Origin: an uncultured bacterium
GTDB lineage: Bacteria; Omnitrophota; Omnitrophia; Omnitrophales; Abzuiibacteriaceae
Assembly (NCBI GenBank): GCA_964387845.1
Contig: CAYLXA010000006.1
Span: forward strand, 32,001 to 96,000
Reading direction: 5' to 3'
DNA length: 64,000 nucleotides
Below are positions 33,001 through 39,000 of this stretch, one piece after another. Made by a program: the position numbers. How positions within the stretch are numbered: position 1 is the first letter of the stretch; each line of letters begins with the position of its first letter.

Positions 33001-36000
33001 CCCTCAGAAAAATGGTCTGCCGAAATTGATTTGGGTTGGACGGGTTGGAGCGTTTTTGCTGATCAAGATGTTTCTGTGGATCGTCCTAATGCAGTTACGC
33101 AATCGCTTGGCAGAGTTCCAAGAAATTACCACAATACTTGGAGCGTCAACGCGGGCGGTCATTATAAAATGAACGAGAAAATAGATCTCCTTGGCGGCAT
33201 GTGGCTTTATTCGGCGGCTTCGCCAACTGAAAACTTTGATGCAGTTATTCCAGATTCCAATCGGCTTGGGTTATCGAGCGGGTTTACTTATTCACTGACA
33301 AAAAGCTTGGACATTACGACCATAGGGTTTGTGTCATTCTTTGAAAGGCGAAGCATATCTAACCGAGAATATTTTGCAAAGAATCGCGTCAGTCTTGATG
33401 GTGAGTACACCAGCATTTCTTATGGTTTAATGAGCGGTTTGACTTACCGGTTCGGTGAGGGCGCGGTAAAAGCTACGAATGAGCCGAAAGTGGCGAGTAC
33501 GCCGAAATTGGCGAGTTCTGCTATTGTGAGCCAGGCGGGGAACCTGGCTTAAAAGTCAATCCGTTAAACCCAGATCCAAACAGCGTTTCGAGACAAGCTC
33601 GCAGAATTCTTCAAGATCAAAAGGCTTTGAACCAAAAATCGTTCCCGGCGGGAACGATTTTTTGTCTTCCGGGCTAAGCGGTGTTGCGGACACCACGAAA
33701 ACTTGTTTTGGATTCCAGCCGTCAAGGCCTGCCAGCTTTTGATAGAGTTCATCGGCGCGCATGTGAGGCATTTTCCAGTCCAGCACCACAAAATCGGGCT
33801 CAAAAAATCCGGCCTTTTCGATTCCCTCAAGACCTGTTAAAGCATACTGAGCTTCAAATTTTGCTTTCGAGTAGGATGCCAAAAAATTAGAGACGACTTC
33901 GCAATACTCTGCTTCGTGATCGATGATTAGGATTTTGGCTTTTGGCTTCGTGACGGTTTCGGAAAACTCCGGCTCATAGGCGATGGTTTCCGTGATTTCG
34001 TCAATCACGCGGATTAATTCATCAGTGTCAGGCGGTTTTGAAAGCATGCGGTCAGCCCGAATGTTCCGCAGCTTCGGCTCAAATTGAGGAAGCTTGCCGG
34101 ACAAAATGATGACTTTCAAATTTGGCTGCTGCTCGCGAAGGAGTGAAAGCACCTGAATCCCGTCCAATCTGGGCATCTGAAGATCCAAAATAACCAAATC
34201 CACAACCAAATGCCGCGCCAAGCGAACGGCTTTCTCAGGGTTCGTTTCCGCAATTACGTCGAAGCAGCTTTCTTTCAGAAAGCTTGAAATGGCTTCGTTG
34301 ATGCCGGGATCATCGTCAATGAGGAGAATGAGTTTGCGCTTATGGTCCATGCTTTCCATAAAGTTTACCTAAGTCCTTATCCTATAATATCTTAAAGAAT
34401 ATACAAGTATTATTTTCAAGAATTCTGACTTTCAAGATACAATATAGCATCCAAGACGCTCCAAATGGCTCCTTTACTAAGTTTTAGGATAAGTCGATAA
34501 TTATATGCCATGTGTTTATCACTATTAACCATGCCTCACGATAAGCGAGGGTTGTCGCAAACTGTTATCTAACTTATGAGCCCCACAAAAGATAAATCAA
34601 TTCAAATTAAGCTTGAGCGTCCCATCCACGCATCCAAACGCCAGGCCTTTGCCAAATTGCTCCGGATGACCGATTTTCAGAATTTCATGCCGAACGTCAA
34701 AGAAAGTAAGCTCTTAGAACATTCCGGCAACACAGCGCTCATGAAGTGGCATATTGAAATCGAGGGCTTTCCCATCAAGTGGGCGGAGCGCAATACGATC
34801 AACCGGCACAAATTTACGATTCAATTCAAAGCCATTGACGGAGATTTGGCGCTTTTTGAAGGCAAGTGGTCTATCACGGATCACAGCATCGGTTCTCAGA
34901 TCAGTCTCACCGCAAAAATTCAAACCGGAATTCCGTTTCTGGAAAAATTGGTGGGCGGTATTTTGAGGGAAAAAATCATGCGAAATTTTGAAGCGATGCT
35001 GGCATTCTTGGAGTGTGAAATCCGGGAAGATTTTTACCGCGTCAATTTGCCGAAGAAAAATTTAAGCGGCTACGGCCTGATTGGGCATCCCTACAATTAT
35101 CAACACATGCTTCGCTATTTACAGTCGCTTAATCCGGGCATGAAGCTTCCGTCGCGTGAGTTTTTGGGCAAGCTCTTTGACATGACGCCGCCGCACAAGT
35201 CGTGCGATATCCGCCCGATCGAATCAGTGACGGGCCGGAAATCTTACGGTCATTTTATTGTATGCCCGATTATTCCGGAAATGCTCGATGTAAACATTGA
35301 AGCGGTTTTTAGTCGTGTTATTGAAGCAATCCGGGTTGCGGAGAACCATCGCTGCGGCATTGTAACGCTCGGCGGATTTACGTCTATTGCGGGCGAGCGT
35401 TTTGGGAAAGAAATTCCTAAGCTGGTTTCAGTACCGGTCACGACCGGCAACACATTTACGGCTGCCCTTGCGGTGGAGGGTGTCCTGAAGGGCTGCGAGA
35501 CGATGGGGATCGATCTTTCGGTCGCCAAATTAGTTGTCATCGGCGGCAGCGGTGATATCGGAAGTGCCTGCGCGCGCGTGTTAGCCGAAAAGGTCAGGCA
35601 TGTGACGCTTCTTGCACGCAATATCGAACGTCTTCGGGTTGAGCAGGGTTACATTGAACGGCTTGGGAAAGCGACGGTCGATATCGGTTCCGATGTCAAT
35701 ATGTCGATTGCGGATGCGGATATTGTAATTGCAGCAGCCAGCGCAACGCAGTCGTTTATGGATCCGAGCAATTTTAAGTCCGGTTCTGTTATTTGCGACA
35801 TCGGTTACCCAAAGAACATTGCTTATTTAGCAAAAGACCGGCGCGACCTTCTCATTTTTTCCGGCGGGCTTTGCTCGATTCCGTCTGATTTTCATTTAGA
35901 AGCGAAGTTTGACTACGGCTTGCCGACACGGCGCGTTTTGTACGGTTGCTTCGCGGAAGCGATCTTGCTTGATTTGGATAAAAAGTATGAAAGCTTTAGT

Positions 36001-39000
36001 TATGGAAAGGGAAATATTACAAAAGAAAAAATGACCGAAATCATGCAGATTGCACGCAGACATGGTTTGGGCCTTGCGCCGTTTTTTTGGGGCGACCGGC
36101 TGCTGGGCGAGCAAGAATTTGAAATGATTCGCGAAAGAGTCAAAAAATAACATGACCCCGCCGCTCCTGAGTCCGAGCGTTTACACTTTTAGCTGGTATG
36201 CTGTACCGACCTTAATAGTTGCCGCTGTTATTCTCGCGATCGGTAGTTTTGTCCTGAAGCAAAGTTTTAAATCCCAAACGAATCAATCATTTTTCTTGCT
36301 CTGTGCTGCACTTTTTGTGTGGCTGACCGGTTACAGCTGCATCTATATGCTGGACCAAGAAGACATTGCGCTAACAGCTTACCGCTACTACACATTTCTG
36401 GGTGTCGCTTTTATTGGATTTAGTGTTTATTTATTTTCAGTTCTTTGGCTCCAATTATGGGAGAAACAAAAATATTTTGTCATTTTTTCTTTCATGCTTT
36501 CAGCGTTCTTCTATATCGCTGCCTGGACAACCGACTGGGTTGTGCCGAGCATTGATCAATATTTTTGGGGTTTCTACTCACATTACGGGCCGCTCGGCAT
36601 CGTTTTTTTTGCAACGTTTGTGGCTTTTTTCTTTATCGCCTTTTTTAATTTTATTTACCGGCTCCGCAATCCGATTCCGAGTGTTCAAAAAAGCCAGATC
36701 AAGGCAGTTCTGCTCTCATTTTGCGTTGCCCTAACCGGCGCCTTTGATTTTGTTCCCAAAATGGTCCATGTCTCGCTATACCCGTTTGGATATCTTTCTG
36801 CGCTGCTGTGGATTTTGATCATGGCGTATGCCATTGTGAAGTACAAAGTGATGGATATCCAAACGGTTATTCATAAAACACTGCTGTGGCTTGCAACGTC
36901 TGTGATTTTCTTGGCGCCAATCGCACTCGTGTCTTATGCGGCCTGGGGCTGGCTGAGCCAGCTGTCGGCTGCATGGTTTGCATTAATCACATTTTGCTTT
37001 GTTGTGGCTTTCGTTCCGTACGTCCGTTTTGTGCAGCCTTACATTGATCAATGGTTCGAGCGCCGAAGCTGGAATTTAAACCAAGTGATCAAGCAGTTTA
37101 ATGATGAGCTCATTCATCTAAAAACCATAGAGGACCTTTCCAATCACATTCTACAAACCATTAAAAGAACCATTTACCCCGCAGATTTGGATCTTTTGCT
37201 TTGGGATGAGGGCGGCAAGGAATCCTTAGTATTTACGGGCGATGCGAAGGCGGTCAAGTATGATGCGAGGAAGTTTCACGATTTTTTCCGCTTCTTAGAA
37301 TCATACGATGCCGTCATTCTAGAGGATTATATTGAAATTGATCCGCGCCTTGAAGCTGCCAGGGGGCCGGCGCGCCATTATTTTTCCGCAACCCAAGGAA
37401 TTGTTTGTGTGCCGGTCGTTCTCAATGAAAAGCTGATAGGCGTCATCAATTTACGGCAAAAGGCGAATCTTAAAAATTACTCGCGGGAAGAAATAAGGTT
37501 TCTGTCTGATTTGCGCGGCAGCGCTACGATTGCTATTTCAAATTCACTGCGCCTGATCGCGATGCAGGCAAATCTCAGGCGGTGGAACGAGGAGCTTGAA
37601 AAGCAGGTTGAGGAACGCACCCGAGAGTTGAAAGATGCGCAGGGAAAATTGATTCAAGCGGAAAAATTAGCCACCATCGGAACTTTGGCGGGCGGTGTGG
37701 CGCATGAAATCAACAACCCATTGGCTGCTATTTTGACAAATGCGCAAATGTTACTGTCTGAAAAAATGGACCCTGCGTCTATGGAAAGCCTTCAGTTAAT
37801 TGAAGAAGCGGCGGAAAGATGCCGAATTATAGTGCAAAAGCTCATGAAATACTCCCGAAAATCGCCTCAGGGAGAGTCGTTTGAATCGGTTGATCTCAAT
37901 GAAGCTACCGAACAGACAATCGCTTTGCTGCAGTATCAATTAGAGCAAGACAACGTAAAACTGGTCAAAAAGTTAAATGCAAGAGGAGCCGTGCAGGGAA
38001 ATGCAAACGAATTGTCGCAGGTGCTGACCAATTTAATATTGAATGCGCGTGATGCGCTTCGAAACCGTCCGGATGCCGTTATTGAGGTGCGTACTTTTGA
38101 GAAAGACGGCAAAACCATTGTGGAAGTAGAAGATAACGGAGAGGGGATTCCCAAAGAAATCCTCTCGAAAATTTTTGACCCGTTTTTCACGACGAAAGAT
38201 GTGGGAAAAGGAACAGGTCTCGGGCTTTCAATTGTGCAAGGTATCGTAGAAAAACACAATGCCCAAATCGAAGTGAAGTCGAAAGTTGGATCGGGCACCG
38301 TGATGACCGTTATTTTTTCAAAACAAAACGCAAAATCAAAAAATGCTCAAACCGAACATAGCAACCGCTGATTAAGCCATGATCCATCAAGAAGCTTTGG
38401 GAATTGCGAATGCGTTCATCTGCCTGATGGCAGCCGGGCTTGTGTTTGCCAAAGACCGTTACGGCCGCCTGAACCAGGCGTTTCTGATTTTTTCTTCCAG
38501 CTTAGCGCTTTGGCTGGTGCTGCAGCTTTTTTGGACTTACCACTTAGCAGAAGGTAGTGCGCCGCTCAATTTAGCATGGACGCAAGTCGTTTACATTTTT
38601 TCGCTTGTGATTGCAGCGTCCTTCATTGAGTTTTTGCTGTATTTAATCGATGACGAAGAGTCTTTCGCTTTACCCCGGACTTTAAACGTTTTGATCGGAA
38701 CCGTACCGGCTCTTATTTCGCTGGTTCCGGGTGTTTATGCAACCGTATCCCAACATCCGCTGTTTCAAGTTTTTTATCACCATTGGCCATCCCTATACCC
38801 ATCGACCAACTGGTTTATTGCCAATTTTATGTTTGCACAAGTTTGGATGTTGTTGGCCATTCTGAGGAAGCGCTATGCCATGACAAAGCGCAGGATCGGA
38901 TTTGTGCTGATGGCAACTTTTCTGGGATTTATCGGTATGGTAGTGAATCCGGTTGCGCCTGTTTCACAGTTATTGTTGTGCGTTTTTGTGATTACCATGA

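Follow-up and report, generated by a model that had tools for sequence, protein, structure and literature searches.

An SRPBCC domain fused to an acyl-ACP reductase-like domain in Omnitrophota is encoded beside 7TM sensor kinases and may form part of a lipid-based signaling unit

Introduction

The acyl-ACP reductase (AAR) of cyanobacterial alkane biosynthesis and the more distant GluTR channel aldehydes to a partner, and PigE has its partner fused to it (PMC8341465). In AAR the N-terminal segment builds the mouth of the tunnel, and an engineered fusion of the C-terminus of the aldehyde-deformylating oxygenase (ADO) to the N-terminus of AAR increased yield 4.8-fold (PMC7089970). The topology of that engineered protein is the same as that of a natural gene from an uncultured member of the Omnitrophota, which was predicted from the DNA alone to fuse an SRPBCC domain to an AAR-like domain at the head of a two-component cluster. 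Here we analyze this gene within its 64-kb window (the whole stretch of DNA under study) and across related loci. The roles given below to residues Y26, C294, R189 and R314 of the Synechococcus elongatus enzyme (SeAAR) are taken from PMC7089970.

The fusion protein and its active site

The gene does encode two fused domains, a lipid-binding pocket and a fatty-acyl reductase akin to the alkane-pathway enzyme of cyanobacteria. Its parts are as follows.

34576..36150, + strand: SRPBCC-AAR-like fusion gene, 524 aa, ATG start (ORF call); subfamily 1 of an Omnitrophota-wide family
34600..35040, + strand: SRPBCC (START/Bet v 1-like) domain, residues 9-155 (PF03364, DSSP of the model, Foldseek)
35041..35070, + strand: short hinge between both domains, residues 156-165 (AF2 model)
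35071..36069, + strand: AAR/PigE-type thioester-reductase domain, residues 166-498 (TIGR04058, NF053554, 6JZQ, residue mapping)
35161..35163, + strand: codon of F196, which aligns with SeAAR Y26 at the acyl-tunnel mouth (F in 81/81 sequences of the family)
35542..35562, + strand: dinucleotide-binding loop G323-G-S-G-D-I-G329 (SeAAR 162-GATGDIG-168)
35947..35949, + strand: TGC codon of Cys458, equivalent of the SeAAR catalytic nucleophile Cys294 (conserved in 81/81)
36070..36147, + strand: family-specific C-terminal extension, residues 499-524 (conserved LAPFFWG motif, then a terminal helix)

The N-terminal domain matches the Pfam family Polyketide_cyc (PF03364; residues 17-141, E=5.1e-14, 53 bits against a cutoff of 23.4), and in the AF2 model it adopts an alpha/beta grip fold that ends, by DSSP, in a long helix (120-155). 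Foldseek aligns this fold to TTHA0849 (2D4R; E=8e-12, TM 0.88). Nine of its residues are invariant in the family: W58, W69, F84, G89, D90, G96, W98, G118 and P120. The model of the whole protein has a pLDDT of 86.7, falling below 50 only at residues 157-159 in the hinge and residues 1-4 at the N-terminus, and its pTM, 0.81 for a chain of 524 aa and two domains, suggests that the domains sit in a definite arrangement.

The reductase domain matches the AAR family far beyond chance. TIGR04058 (AcACP_reductase), the top NCBIfam match, aligns at model positions 2-334 of 339 with residues 166-498 (E=8.9e-50); the best PDB match is the AAR structure 6JZQ (E=8e-37), the predicted model superimposes on 6JZY (Foldseek E=5e-25, TM 0.82 normalized to the target), and 32% of the 327 positions that align with SeAAR are identical, with no SeAAR counterpart for residues 499-524 in the residue mapping. 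The co-linear motifs listed in the original prediction are all present in the order given: GLIGH (167-171), LGGFTSI (265-271), TTGNT (289-293), GGSGDIG (323-329), CDIGYPKN (407-414), CFAEAILLD (458-466) and NITKEKM...RHG (480-497). The same prediction had likened the domain to a cyanobacterial-type long-chain AAR, and here only membership of the superfamily holds, because the TIGR04058 score of 169.9 bits lies far under the equivalog cutoff of 449.7 bits and the PigE thioester-reductase model (NF053554) matches almost equally well (E=1.4e-47, 162.6 bits).

Alignment shows that the domain retains its catalytic Cys, its nucleotide loop and the basic side chains for holding the phosphate of NADPH. 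In an alignment of 81 sequences that are 41-80% identical to the window protein, the TGN, GxGDIG and YPKN motifs are conserved, R348 (SeAAR R189) is kept in 80/81, and the position of SeAAR R314 holds K or R in 78/81. The invariance or near-invariance of the Cys, nucleotide loop, TGN and YPKN at such divergence argues for selection on catalysis, and conserved basic residues for the 2'-phosphate point to NADPH, the cofactor typical of reductive enzymes.

Other features speak against an alkane pathway. Of the four basic residues that dock ADO in SeAAR, three are lost in the family: R73 is replaced by D in 60/81 sequences (by N in the window protein), and neither R79 nor R118 is conserved. As had been predicted, the gene lies outside any alkane operon; neither the window nor 86 related loci (3541 ORFs) yielded an ADO-like ORF, and the scanned window ORFs of at least 120 aa gave no Pfam match to ADO, ACP or FAS. 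Equivalog status was therefore rejected on score, on equal closeness to PigE, on the lost docking residues and on the missing ADO. That the protein is nevertheless a canonical AAR whose oxygenase is encoded elsewhere in the genome, as its best PDB and NCBIfam matches might imply, is highly improbable given these same observations and the fact that the named hosts are all non-cyanobacterial Omnitrophota MAGs.

Gene neighborhood

The fusion gene heads a two-component cluster, in which it is followed by a pair of histidine kinase genes and a pair of receiver genes. The cluster and further genes of the window are listed here.

32107..33552, + strand: FadL/TodX-type outer-membrane channel for hydrophobic compounds (PF03349, E=8e-49)
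33556..34359, - strand: REC-REC protein, divergently transcribed (conserved in the closest relatives, L001 and L007)
34360..34575, no strand: AT-rich 216-bp intergenic region between the REC-REC and fusion genes, presumed promoter region
36152..38371, + strand: HK1, a HisKA_7TM-GAF-HisKA (His518)-HATPase kinase (Pfam, hydropathy)
38379..40688, + strand: HK2, a second multi-TM-GAF-kinase (His534), membrane domain related to that of HK1
40694..41080, + strand: single-domain receiver, REC only (Pfam)
41083..41811, + strand: receiver with REC at residues 121-231 and no DNA-binding domain (Pfam)
47471..57199, + strand: TolC-like OEP, HlyD-type adaptor and two tandem AcrB-type RND pumps

The ATG of HK1 lies one base past the stop of the fusion gene (a 1-nt spacer), and its HisKA_7TM domain (residues 21-236) is followed by two extra hydrophobic segments reaching to about residue 289. 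Promoter consensus scans of 34360..34575 gave background levels. Pfam recognizes no domain in the N-terminal half of the 41083..41811 receiver, and the response regulators have no recognizable output domain and no DNA-binding output.

The original prediction had treated the two-component cluster as incidental; comparison across loci reverses this, as no other feature of the family is so conserved or so informative. A HisKA_7TM-GAF histidine kinase of the HK1 type follows the fusion gene in 68 of the 69 informative loci, within 120 bp in 44, after one or two inserted genes in 23, and at more than 3 kb in one. HK2-type genes recur across the compared loci, and a REC-only gene related to the first receiver lies downstream in 46 of the 66 loci having HK1. 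This near-constant pairing with a 7TM sensor suggests a lipid-based signaling unit, not a hydrocarbon pathway.

Other neighbors vary, and they appear to give the pathway a lipid character. A PlsC/AGPAT-type acyltransferase gene is immediately upstream in about 26 loci, mostly overlapping the start of the fusion gene; an HpnA/OleD-like SDR of the NAD-dependent epimerase/dehydratase family is directly downstream in 16; and a GMC oxidoreductase neighbors the fusion gene in 6. Further variable neighbors include an AMP-ligase (ACS)-ACP-acyltransferase protein at L072, MGDG synthase and lipid A acyltransferase genes at L091, an SRPBCC-LuxD-methyltransferase protein and a FabA-like dehydratase. Such genes raise the possibility that the protein is an enzyme dedicated to making membrane lipids, perhaps as a source of fatty aldehyde or alcohol for specialized envelope lipids such as alkyl ethers, with the kinases only regulating it, as in des-desKR. 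In an Elb-like pathway, for example, its AAR-like domain might substitute for the FAR domain that ElbD-like proteins lack. ElbA and ElbE belong to the same SDR class as the downstream SDR, the reductase domain is mostly missing from non-myxobacterial ElbD-like proteins (PMC9131029), and ElbD homologs have been reported in 93/267 Black Sea Omnitrophota MAGs (bioRxiv 2024.06.25.600576). We consider this explanation possible but lean against it: the lipid accessory genes are confined to particular clades and do not occur in the 64-kb window, whereas a 7TM sensor accompanies the gene almost everywhere, the receivers carry no DNA-binding output, and regulation alone would leave the fusions of the reductase to 7TM, PilZ and HTH domains (below) unexplained.

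FadL genes recur near the fusion gene or AAR-like genes (L001, L007, L012, L015, L028, L029, L032, L039, L043 and L093), and about 20 other loci have this RND pair just upstream of the fusion gene, so that an association is possible but looser. Repeated proximity to import and efflux genes would also suit an enzyme running in the oxidative direction, an ACP- or CoA-acylating aldehyde dehydrogenase. Hydrophobic aldehydes would then enter through FadL or come from the membrane, SRPBCC would deliver them, and their capture would serve to detoxify them, to salvage them or to end a signal. The thioester-aldehyde chemistry of acylating aldehyde dehydrogenases, at a Cys and with NAD(P), is indeed reversible in principle. 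We regard the oxidative role as quite improbable, since the superfamily members of known chemistry (AAR, PigE and GluTR) act reductively and the conserved basic residues point to NADPH.

Distribution and variant architectures

The original prediction had also presented the fusion as a new architecture. It is already in the databases, with at least 779 homologous proteins and at least 80 full-length species-level loci, and it is new only in being undescribed: we found no paper on an SRPBCC-AAR-like fusion in the searched literature. Nearly all members of the family come from Omnitrophota. The best 120 of the 779 homologs are all about 480-550 aa long with PF03364, and 119 of them also have PF01488. 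Automatic names already given to the homologs are "SRPBCC family protein", "long-chain acyl-ACP reductase" and "amino acid dehydrogenase/RatA".

Variants of the architecture repeat the same associations. In a split form (L091/L092), an SRPBCC gene and a reductase gene lie 4 bp apart and are followed by a 7TM kinase gene; the L091 stand-alone SRPBCC protein shows 32% identity to the SRPBCC domain of the window protein (E=5e-27) and carries all nine invariant residues. The adjacency of these split genes suggests that SRPBCC and reductase belong together. In P0357 a HisKA_7TM domain (53 bits against a cutoff of 28.6 bits) replaces SRPBCC, the Cys is kept, and a 7TM-GAF kinase gene comes after it, while a stand-alone reductase gene adjoins one for a HisKA_7TM-HD-GYP protein. 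Relatives with N-terminal PilZ or HTH-PilZ extensions have intact RxxxR and [DN]xSxxG motifs, and the same SRPBCC subtype is found fused to PilZ and also to a LuxD-type acyltransferase and methyltransferase. HisKA_7TM and GAF kinases also flank the genes of subfamily 2, a divergent group at 28-32% identity. One homolog, from a Firmicute, lacks signaling neighbors.

Residence in PilZ, HTH and 7TM signaling architectures could also mean that the protein is a sensor subunit with little or no catalysis, binding acyl-ACP, NADPH or lipid and signaling metabolic or lipid status to the 7TM kinases through protein-protein contact. Degenerate relatives fit this idea, including P0126, in which both the Cys and the Gly loop are lost, and small upstream paralogs with Ser instead of Cys in 3 of 4. 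Such a role is rather improbable for the window protein, whose own family holds the catalytic and nucleotide-binding motifs (near-)invariant in 81 sequences.

Proposed role

The reading we favor, at a probability of about one half, is that of an NADPH-dependent thioester-to-aldehyde reductase in which the SRPBCC pocket plays the role of ADO and which acts with 7TM sensors, with no hydrocarbon pathway involved. The protein would be a soluble two-domain enzyme, its C-terminal 360 residues making up a thioester reductase of AAR/PigE type that depends on a Cys and on NADPH. We infer that an acyl group moves from acyl-ACP or acyl-CoA onto Cys458, and that NADPH, bound at G323-G329 while R348, R352 and K478 grip its 2'-phosphate, reduces this acyl-enzyme. 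The product would be a long-chain aldehyde with its tail in a hydrophobic tunnel opening beside the N-terminal end of the reductase domain, at F196. SRPBCC is fused exactly at this end of the domain, in the place of ADO in AAR or of the aminotransferase domain in PigE, and its pocket would accept, shield and pass on the insoluble, reactive aldehyde, or possibly present the incoming acyl chain. Holding a hydrophobic product is the best-supported idea for the role of SRPBCC.

The enzyme would then act as a unit with the HisKA_7TM sensors HK1 and HK2 and the REC-only receivers, most likely making or handing over a lipid-derived molecule that the membrane sensors read. Against this reading, tight synteny with kinases would be expected as well if they only regulate a lipid-remodeling enzyme, and we know of no precedent for a fatty-aldehyde-sensing histidine kinase. 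The score far under the AAR equivalog cutoff, the response regulators devoid of a recognizable output domain, the absence of lipid accessory genes from the window and the Firmicute homolog lacking signaling neighbors also count against it.

Comparison with known systems

The fusion shares with cyanobacterial AAR (S. elongatus orf1594; 6JZQ, 6JZU, 6JZY and 6JZZ) the three-part fold, the catalytic Cys, the GxGDIG loop, TGN, YPKN, an aromatic residue at the tunnel mouth and basic residues for the 2'-phosphate of NADPH or the 3'-phosphate of CoA. Unlike AAR, it has an N-terminal SRPBCC domain, a 26-residue C-terminal extension, a sub-cutoff score and a largely lost docking surface, and its gene is operonic with 7TM sensor kinases instead of accompanying an ADO gene, in non-photosynthetic Omnitrophota. 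Similarity is as strong to the PigE/TamH thioester reductase of prodiginine and tambjamine synthesis (4PPM), with the Cys in common and the shared principle of a reductase joined in one chain to the module that takes up its aldehyde; there the partner is a PLP aminotransferase, here it is an N-terminal ligand-binding domain outside any pigment or alkaloid cluster. The terminal amidation domain (TAD) of NRPS/PKS systems (CarI; 9E4S and related structures) is another case of an AAR-like fold built into a larger protein, two-lobed and with an invariant Cys beside the nicotinamide, but is only about 20% identical, NAD-specific, located at the end of an NRPS module and assigned a proposed amidation chemistry. 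On the SRPBCC side, PF03364 proteins such as TTHA0849, Coq10/RatA and the polyketide ARO/CYC proteins (e.g. TcmN) have the same helix-grip fold, with deep hydrophobic pockets for lipids, quinones or ACP-borne polyketide chains; unlike them, the domain described here is fused to, or encoded adjacent to, a thioester reductase.

At the level of gene organization, the myxobacterial ElbD/elb ether-lipid cluster resembles some clades in combining acyl activation and ACP, a reductase, an AGPAT-type acyltransferase and SDRs, but here the reductase is of the AAR family, not FAR/NAD_binding_4, and the separate accessory genes vary by clade. Functional analogies are offered by CqsA/CqsS, where the synthase of a hydrophobic autoinducer is encoded beside the multi-TM kinase that binds it, and by des-desK/desR, where a lipid enzyme is encoded beside a kinase that senses membrane state. 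As in both, the gene of a lipid-handling enzyme adjoins that of a polytopic sensor kinase; unlike either, to which it has no sequence relationship, the Omnitrophota system pairs an orphan HisKA_7TM sensor (PF16927) with receivers made of REC only.

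Domain architecture and fold of the fusion protein

The analysis concerns a single gene:

34576-36150 (+), 524-aa protein with an N-terminal SRPBCC domain and an acyl-ACP reductase (AAR)-like body

This open reading frame is present as originally predicted, with all of the quoted AAR motifs in the order described. Pfam places PF03364 (Polyketide_cyc/SRPBCC) at residues 17-141 (E=5.1e-14; 53 bits against a cutoff of 23.4), and positions 2-334 of the 339 in the NCBIfam model TIGR04058 align to residues 166-498 (E=8.9e-50), a significant match within the region (165-524) for which AAR ancestry had been proposed. 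The best solved relatives of the protein are the Synechococcus elongatus AAR (SeAAR; 6JZQ, E=8e-37) and PigE (4PPM, E=5e-26) and, where the N-terminal domain is concerned, TTHA0849 (2D4R, E=2e-6). AlphaFold2, run on 36 family members, gave a confident model (mean pLDDT 86.7, pTM 0.81) in which a helix-grip domain (residues 9-155) is joined by a short hinge of low confidence (157-159) to the AAR-like body. Foldseek matched this model to AAR (6JZY; E=5e-25, target-normalized TM 0.82, 30% identity), to the NRPS terminal amidation domain (TAD; 9E4S, E=2e-18) and, among START/ARO-CYC folds, to 2D4R at TM 0.88. The body has the attributes of the superfamily that unites AAR, the N-terminal part of PigE and TAD (COG5322), namely a two-lobed fold with a Cys in the cleft beside a Rossmann NAD(P) site and superfamily sequence matches with E-values of 1e-26 to 1e-50; the N-terminal domain combines a PF03364 score above the gathering threshold with the helix-grip fold of SRPBCC proteins. 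The fusion of an SRPBCC domain to an AAR-like reductase is confirmed, with similarity far beyond chance. Four conserved aromatic residues of the SRPBCC domain (W58, W69, F84 and W98) are suggestive of a cavity for a hydrophobic ligand, and only that.

Residues 499-524 (36070-36147) form a C-terminal extension specific to the family, in which a motif that hardly varies, LAPFFWG, is accompanied by a terminal helix. Neither cyanobacterial AAR nor a 7TM-fused relative has this extension, which is a candidate for docking or for contact with the membrane.

Relationship to characterized reductases

Functional residues of SeAAR, as defined in PMC7089970, were mapped onto 81 family sequences.

Table. 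Functional residues of SeAAR and their counterparts in the window protein and in the 81 family sequences.
SeAAR residue or motif; role; counterpart; state in the family
C294; catalytic, acyl-enzyme Cys; C458; 81/81
162-GATGDIG-168; nucleotide-binding loop; G323-G329; conserved
TGN and YPKN; motifs; 290-292 and 411-414; conserved
R189; 2'-phosphate; R348; 80/81
R314; 2'-phosphate; K478; K or R in 78/81
R193; 2'-phosphate; R352; mostly Asn
R73; ADO docking; N240; Asp in 60/81
R79, R118; ADO docking; S246, S285; variable
K80; ADO docking; R247; K in 79/81
Y26; tunnel mouth; F196; 81/81

The catalytic Cys and the nucleotide-binding positions survive alignment, as had been anticipated (C458 and G323-G329), and the window protein carries both the GxTGDIG loop and the basic triad of an NADPH enzyme (G323-G329; R348, R352 and K478). 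NADPH-dependent, Cys-mediated thioester-reductase chemistry is a well supported prediction from these residues. The basic residues with which AAR docks its alkane-pathway partner, the aldehyde-deformylating oxygenase (ADO), are R73, R79, K80 and R118, reported as highly conserved among AAR homologs (PMC7089970); their patch is mostly lost in the window protein (N240, S246, R247 and S285).

The original label of a long-chain AAR-like enzyme stands for superfamily membership and falls for the specific enzyme, since the TIGR04058 score is 169.9 bits against the 449.7 required of an equivalog. The PigE model NF053554 gives a nearly equal 162.6 bits against an equivalog cutoff of 850, over the reductase part only (model positions 48-355 of 837). 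PigE has an N-terminal part that is an AAR-like thioester reductase (PMC8341465); unlike PigE, the window protein has no class-III aminotransferase domain in the Pfam/NCBIfam scan. The predicted absence of ADO was borne out: a probe sequence found no ADO-like ORF when 3541 ORFs, from the window plus 86 related loci, were searched, and ADO, ACP and FAS had no Pfam match in the scanned window ORFs of at least 120 aa. With no ADO, a lost docking patch and a score below the equivalog cutoff, the canonical alkane pathway is rejected, and the evidence does not support calling the protein 'the' long-chain acyl-ACP reductase that serves alkane synthesis.

Some automatic names can also be set aside. 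Shikimate, amino-acid and THF dehydrogenase rest on weak Pfam scores confined to the Rossmann part (313-417) and are rejected because the AAR and PigE models span residues 166-520; JGI names the N-terminal domain RatA toxin, which is a COG label for the SRPBCC fold only, and there is no toxin-antitoxin context.

Distribution of the family

A search of 5.8 billion proteins returned 779 homologs of the window protein. The best 120 of these are 480-550 aa long (most 520-535 aa) and 44-100% identical to it; PF03364 is found in 120/120 and PF01488 in 119/120. Named sources among these 120 are Candidatus Omnitrophota/Omnitrophica, with one labeled Uhrbacteria, and their database labels are 'SRPBCC family protein', 'NAD(P)-binding domain-containing protein', 'long-chain acyl-ACP reductase' and 'predicted amino acid dehydrogenase/RatA'. 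A scan of 185,579 species, one genome per species, found 136 relatives, the best 80 of which span residues ~1 to 520 and come nearly all from Omnitrophota MAGs, a few being labeled Planctomycetes or Uhrbacteria. The architecture, first taken to be new, is already in databases (779 homologs, 80 full-length loci) and absent only from the literature searched: full-text searches returned no paper on an SRPBCC-AAR fusion or on an Omnitrophota AAR-like family. The fusion is thus new to the literature, not to databases. In a neighbor-joining tree, indicative only as it has no bootstrap, the window's own family (subfamily 1) is one all-SRPBCC clade; in subfamily 2 of the same unbootstrapped tree, stand-alone, SRPBCC-, PilZ- and 7TM-fused forms are intermixed, implying repeated exchange of modules.

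Sensor kinases in the gene neighborhood

The signaling genes around the fusion are as follows:

33556-34359 (-), divergent response-regulator gene, REC-REC
36152-38371 (+), HK1, sensor kinase with HisKA_7TM-GAF-HisKA-HATPase domains
38379-40688 (+), HK2, second sensor kinase
40694-41811 (+), two REC-only response regulators
44796-45224 (+), REC-only response regulator

The TAA stop of the fusion is followed by one base and then by the ATG of HK1. HK2, whose membrane domain is related to that of HK1 (E=1e-5), comes next and is itself followed by two REC-only proteins; HK1 (His518), HK2 (His534) and these two receivers, at spacings of 1-7 nt, have the makeup of a two-component operon. Upstream of the fusion lie the divergent REC-REC gene and a FadL channel, the latter at 1 kb. 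Window neighbors served as phmmer probes against the ORFs translated in six frames from all loci. Of the 69 loci with enough downstream sequence, 68 carry an HK1-type kinase downstream of the fusion, L085 being the exception. This kinase is encoded on the strand of the fusion: in 44 loci it lies within 120 bp, in 23 it is separated from the fusion by one or two inserted genes, and in one it is more than 3 kb away. A REC protein is present downstream in 46 of the 66 kinase-bearing loci scored.

All four response regulators around the cluster are REC-only (one of them REC-REC) and have no DNA-binding or enzymatic output domain, so that the system shows no obvious transcriptional output. A promoter and terminator scan of 31.9-46.2 kb gave counts at shuffle background (25 versus 20.4; 23 versus 19.8), so operon boundaries are not readable from it, and an Rfam scan of the whole window gave 0 matches. 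HisKA_7TM appears in the literature only as a sensor domain without an assigned ligand (PMC5847659, PMC6944256), and searches on HisKA_7TM and on Omnitrophota kinases with fatty aldehyde returned nothing on the SRPBCC-AAR family.

Variant architectures tied to 7TM sensors

The link between reductase and 7TM domain reaches well beyond the window's own family. Subfamily 2 of the SRPBCC-AAR proteins (28-32% identity) keeps the Cys; at one of its loci (L089) the gene is flanked by a HisKA_7TM kinase on one side and a GAF kinase on the other, and two REC genes come after them. In a 649-aa homolog, P0357, a HisKA_7TM domain occupies the usual SRPBCC place (53.4 bits against a cutoff of 28.6) and aligns to the 7TM domain of HK1 (E=2e-7); P0357 retains FACMAET and GATGGIG, aligns to residues 190-523 of the window protein (34% identity, E=9e-55), and its gene is followed after 22 bp by a 7TM-GAF kinase. 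Two further loci (L091 and L092) carry the SRPBCC domain (143 aa) and the reductase (362 aa) as separate genes 4 bp apart, directly followed by a HisKA_7TM-GAF kinase; this SRPBCC protein is 32% identical to the window domain (E=5e-27). At L093 and L094 a stand-alone reductase abuts a HisKA_7TM-HD-GYP protein, adjoined by FadL and a second 7TM-HD-GYP protein. Many subfamily-2 members have an N-terminal PilZ or HTH_17-PilZ, and both PilZ sequences inspected (n=2) contain the canonical RxxxR and [DN]xSxxG. A Desulfotomaculum homolog has no such signaling neighbors at its locus.

Several related proteins depart from these arrangements. Stand-alone AAR-like paralogs of ~330-345 aa with Ser for the catalytic Cys lie upstream of the fusion (L080, 8359-9396; L077, 361-1374) or, in L091 (5067-6062), upstream of the separate genes for SRPBCC and reductase; they may be non-catalytic binding subunits, because AAR with the corresponding C294S substitution no longer forms the thioester. 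P0126, a metagenomic SRPBCC-AAR-like protein of 502 aa, retains neither the catalytic Cys (YSAFAEA) nor the Gly-rich nucleotide loop (GCTTKAA) and is likely a pseudoenzyme derived from the family. The same SRPBCC subtype is found in proteins of 710-720 aa with a LuxD-type acyltransferase and a methyltransferase (P0228 and L086, 16040-18172, the latter in the same cluster as a fusion); LuxD is the transferase subunit of the fatty-acid reductase complex. Four metagenomic proteins (P0128, P0171, P0218 and P0151) join this subtype only to PilZ, in either order and without a reductase, which suggests a separate group of c-di-GMP-responsive lipid-binding proteins.

Lipid-type neighbors in other clades

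The genes inserted around the fusion vary by clade, and the identifiable ones are mostly candidate lipid enzymes. A PlsC/AGPAT-type acyltransferase (~197 aa) lies directly upstream in about 26 loci, in most of them overlapping the start of the fusion, and an HpnA/OleD-like SDR, in forms of 332 aa and ~884 aa, lies just downstream in 16. Near the fusion are also a Methyltransf_20-type methyltransferase (14 loci), a GMC oxidoreductase (6 loci), an AMP-ligase-ACP-acyltransferase protein (one locus) and an SRPBCC-LuxD-type acyltransferase-methyltransferase protein (one locus); in L091 the neighbors include a FabA-like dehydratase, a lipid A acyltransferase and an MGDG synthase. A formyltransferase-domain protein (PF00551) at 3 loci (L027, L062 and L065) has no obvious lipid role. 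Upstream of the fusion there are often two RND pumps or FadL; in the window an RND system lies 11 kb downstream.

This pattern resembles the myxobacterial elb ether-lipid cluster, where ElbD is a FAR-ACS-ACP-AGPAT protein and ElbA and ElbE are epimerase-family SDRs (PMC9131029), and ElbD homologs have been reported in 93 of 267 Black Sea Omnitrophota MAGs (bioRxiv 2024.06.25.600576). In the main rival reading, the fusion would simply take part in lipid remodeling or ether-lipid synthesis, with its expression or activity under the control of the kinases. Outside myxobacteria, ElbD-like proteins are usually without the FAR domain (PMC9131029), and none of the lipid-type neighbor enzymes of other clades is present in this window.

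Two features of these loci are without a confident Pfam assignment. Between fusion and kinase, L004 (9689-12343) and its equivalents (L011, L019, L020, L053 and L059) encode a long HpnA-like SDR of ~860-920 aa with a C-terminal extension of ~550 residues that has no Pfam match. Two conserved hypothetical proteins of ~195 and ~200-240 aa (L004, 6476-7843; equivalents in 21-31 loci), without a confident Pfam match, separate the two RND pumps from the fusion in one large Omnitrophota clade and are absent from the window.

Other genes of the window

129-29896, surface-glycan cluster occupying the first 30 kb
41886-44791 (+), NodU/CmcH-type carbamoyltransferase, SxtJ-like small protein and hexapeptide acyltransferase, after the signaling genes
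57488-64000 (+), one ORF of more than 2171 codons, running off the 3' end of the window

The glycan cluster encodes a NeuB-type sialic/nonulosonic acid synthase, a CMP-sugar cytidylyltransferase and a UDP-GlcNAc 2-epimerase; a Wzy-like polymerase, a flippase and a GT4 glycosyltransferase; several methyltransferases, a sulfotransferase, deacetylases and AlgX/SGNH acyl-modifying enzymes; and a radical-SAM/SPASM protein with an SPL-like radical SAM protein. The three genes at ~41.9-44.8 kb were rejected as pathway partners, since the carbamoyltransferase, the only one used as a probe, is near the fusion in no other locus. The long ORF, which starts near 57.5 kb, has a hydrophobic segment at its N-terminus and no Pfam match in its first 1000 residues; its product probably belongs to the very large proteins for which Omnitrophota are typical hosts.

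Proposed role and comparison with known systems

Enzymes of the AAR superfamily transfer an acyl group from ACP or CoA to the Cys, and the acyl-enzyme is then reduced by NADPH (PMC7089970, PMC8341465). The aldehyde tail lies in a tunnel with an exit formed by the N-terminal segment (PMC7089970), and the aldehyde passes directly to a docked partner, which is ADO for AAR, the fused aminotransferase for PigE and, by analogy, GSAM for GluTR (PMC7089970, PMC8341465). Fusing the C-terminus of ADO to the N-terminus of AAR increased alkane yield 4.8-fold (PMC7089970), and the natural SRPBCC-AAR protein has exactly the same topology. Because of this shared topology, the mostly lost ADO patch and the invariant tunnel-mouth aromatic, we infer that the SRPBCC pocket would accept the hydrophobic product within the same protein and carry it, or possibly present the acyl chain. 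The SRPBCC domain can stand apart as a neighboring gene and can be replaced by a HisKA_7TM domain of the type that the adjacent kinases carry, which leads us to argue that the N-terminal module may be the interface between reductase and membrane sensor.

The reading that we prefer is that the enzyme generates or delivers a lipid-derived cue that the 7TM domains would sense; the putative outputs are REC-only receivers, HD-GYP and PilZ/c-di-GMP. In its general form, the Omnitrophota AAR-like reductases with SRPBCC would be the ligand-generating or -delivering half of a lipid-aldehyde (or aldehyde-derived lipid) signaling system, with HisKA_7TM receptors, histidine kinase or HD-GYP outputs and cross-wiring to PilZ/c-di-GMP, a tentative proposal to which we give roughly three chances in ten. 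If it is true, a ligand class could be assigned to HisKA_7TM, a sensor domain of bacteria and archaea, and the AAR enzyme family would gain a signaling role distinct from hydrocarbon or pigment biosynthesis. Omnitrophota are largely uncultured and thought to be host-dependent or predatory, and lipid cues from prey or host membranes would therefore be a plausible input to what is a phylum-wide, lineage-specific signaling and lipid module.

Two-component systems and both folds, that of the enzyme and that of SRPBCC, were already known. The novelty lies in how they are combined, in the conservation of this combination across the phylum and in the evidence from fusions that links an AAR-like reductase to the orphan HisKA_7TM. 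To our knowledge, the near-obligate pairing is the first functional clue for this sensor domain. Backed by fused, split and domain-swapped variants, it turns the HisKA_7TM signal into a testable question with a defined enzyme, a defined kinase and few candidate lipids. Cyanobacterial AAR is limited in alkane and alcohol production by slow turnover and aggregation, and its insoluble aldehyde needs a partner to remove it; a natural relative with a built-in soluble aldehyde carrier could serve as an engineering template. The fusion would be a fourth natural setting of the AAR fold, after AAR with ADO, PigE/TamH and the NRPS TAD, and it strengthens the rule that reductases of this fold pass their aldehyde to a partner at the tunnel exit and do not release it freely, the partner here being a putative lipid pocket that can be swapped for a 7TM membrane domain.
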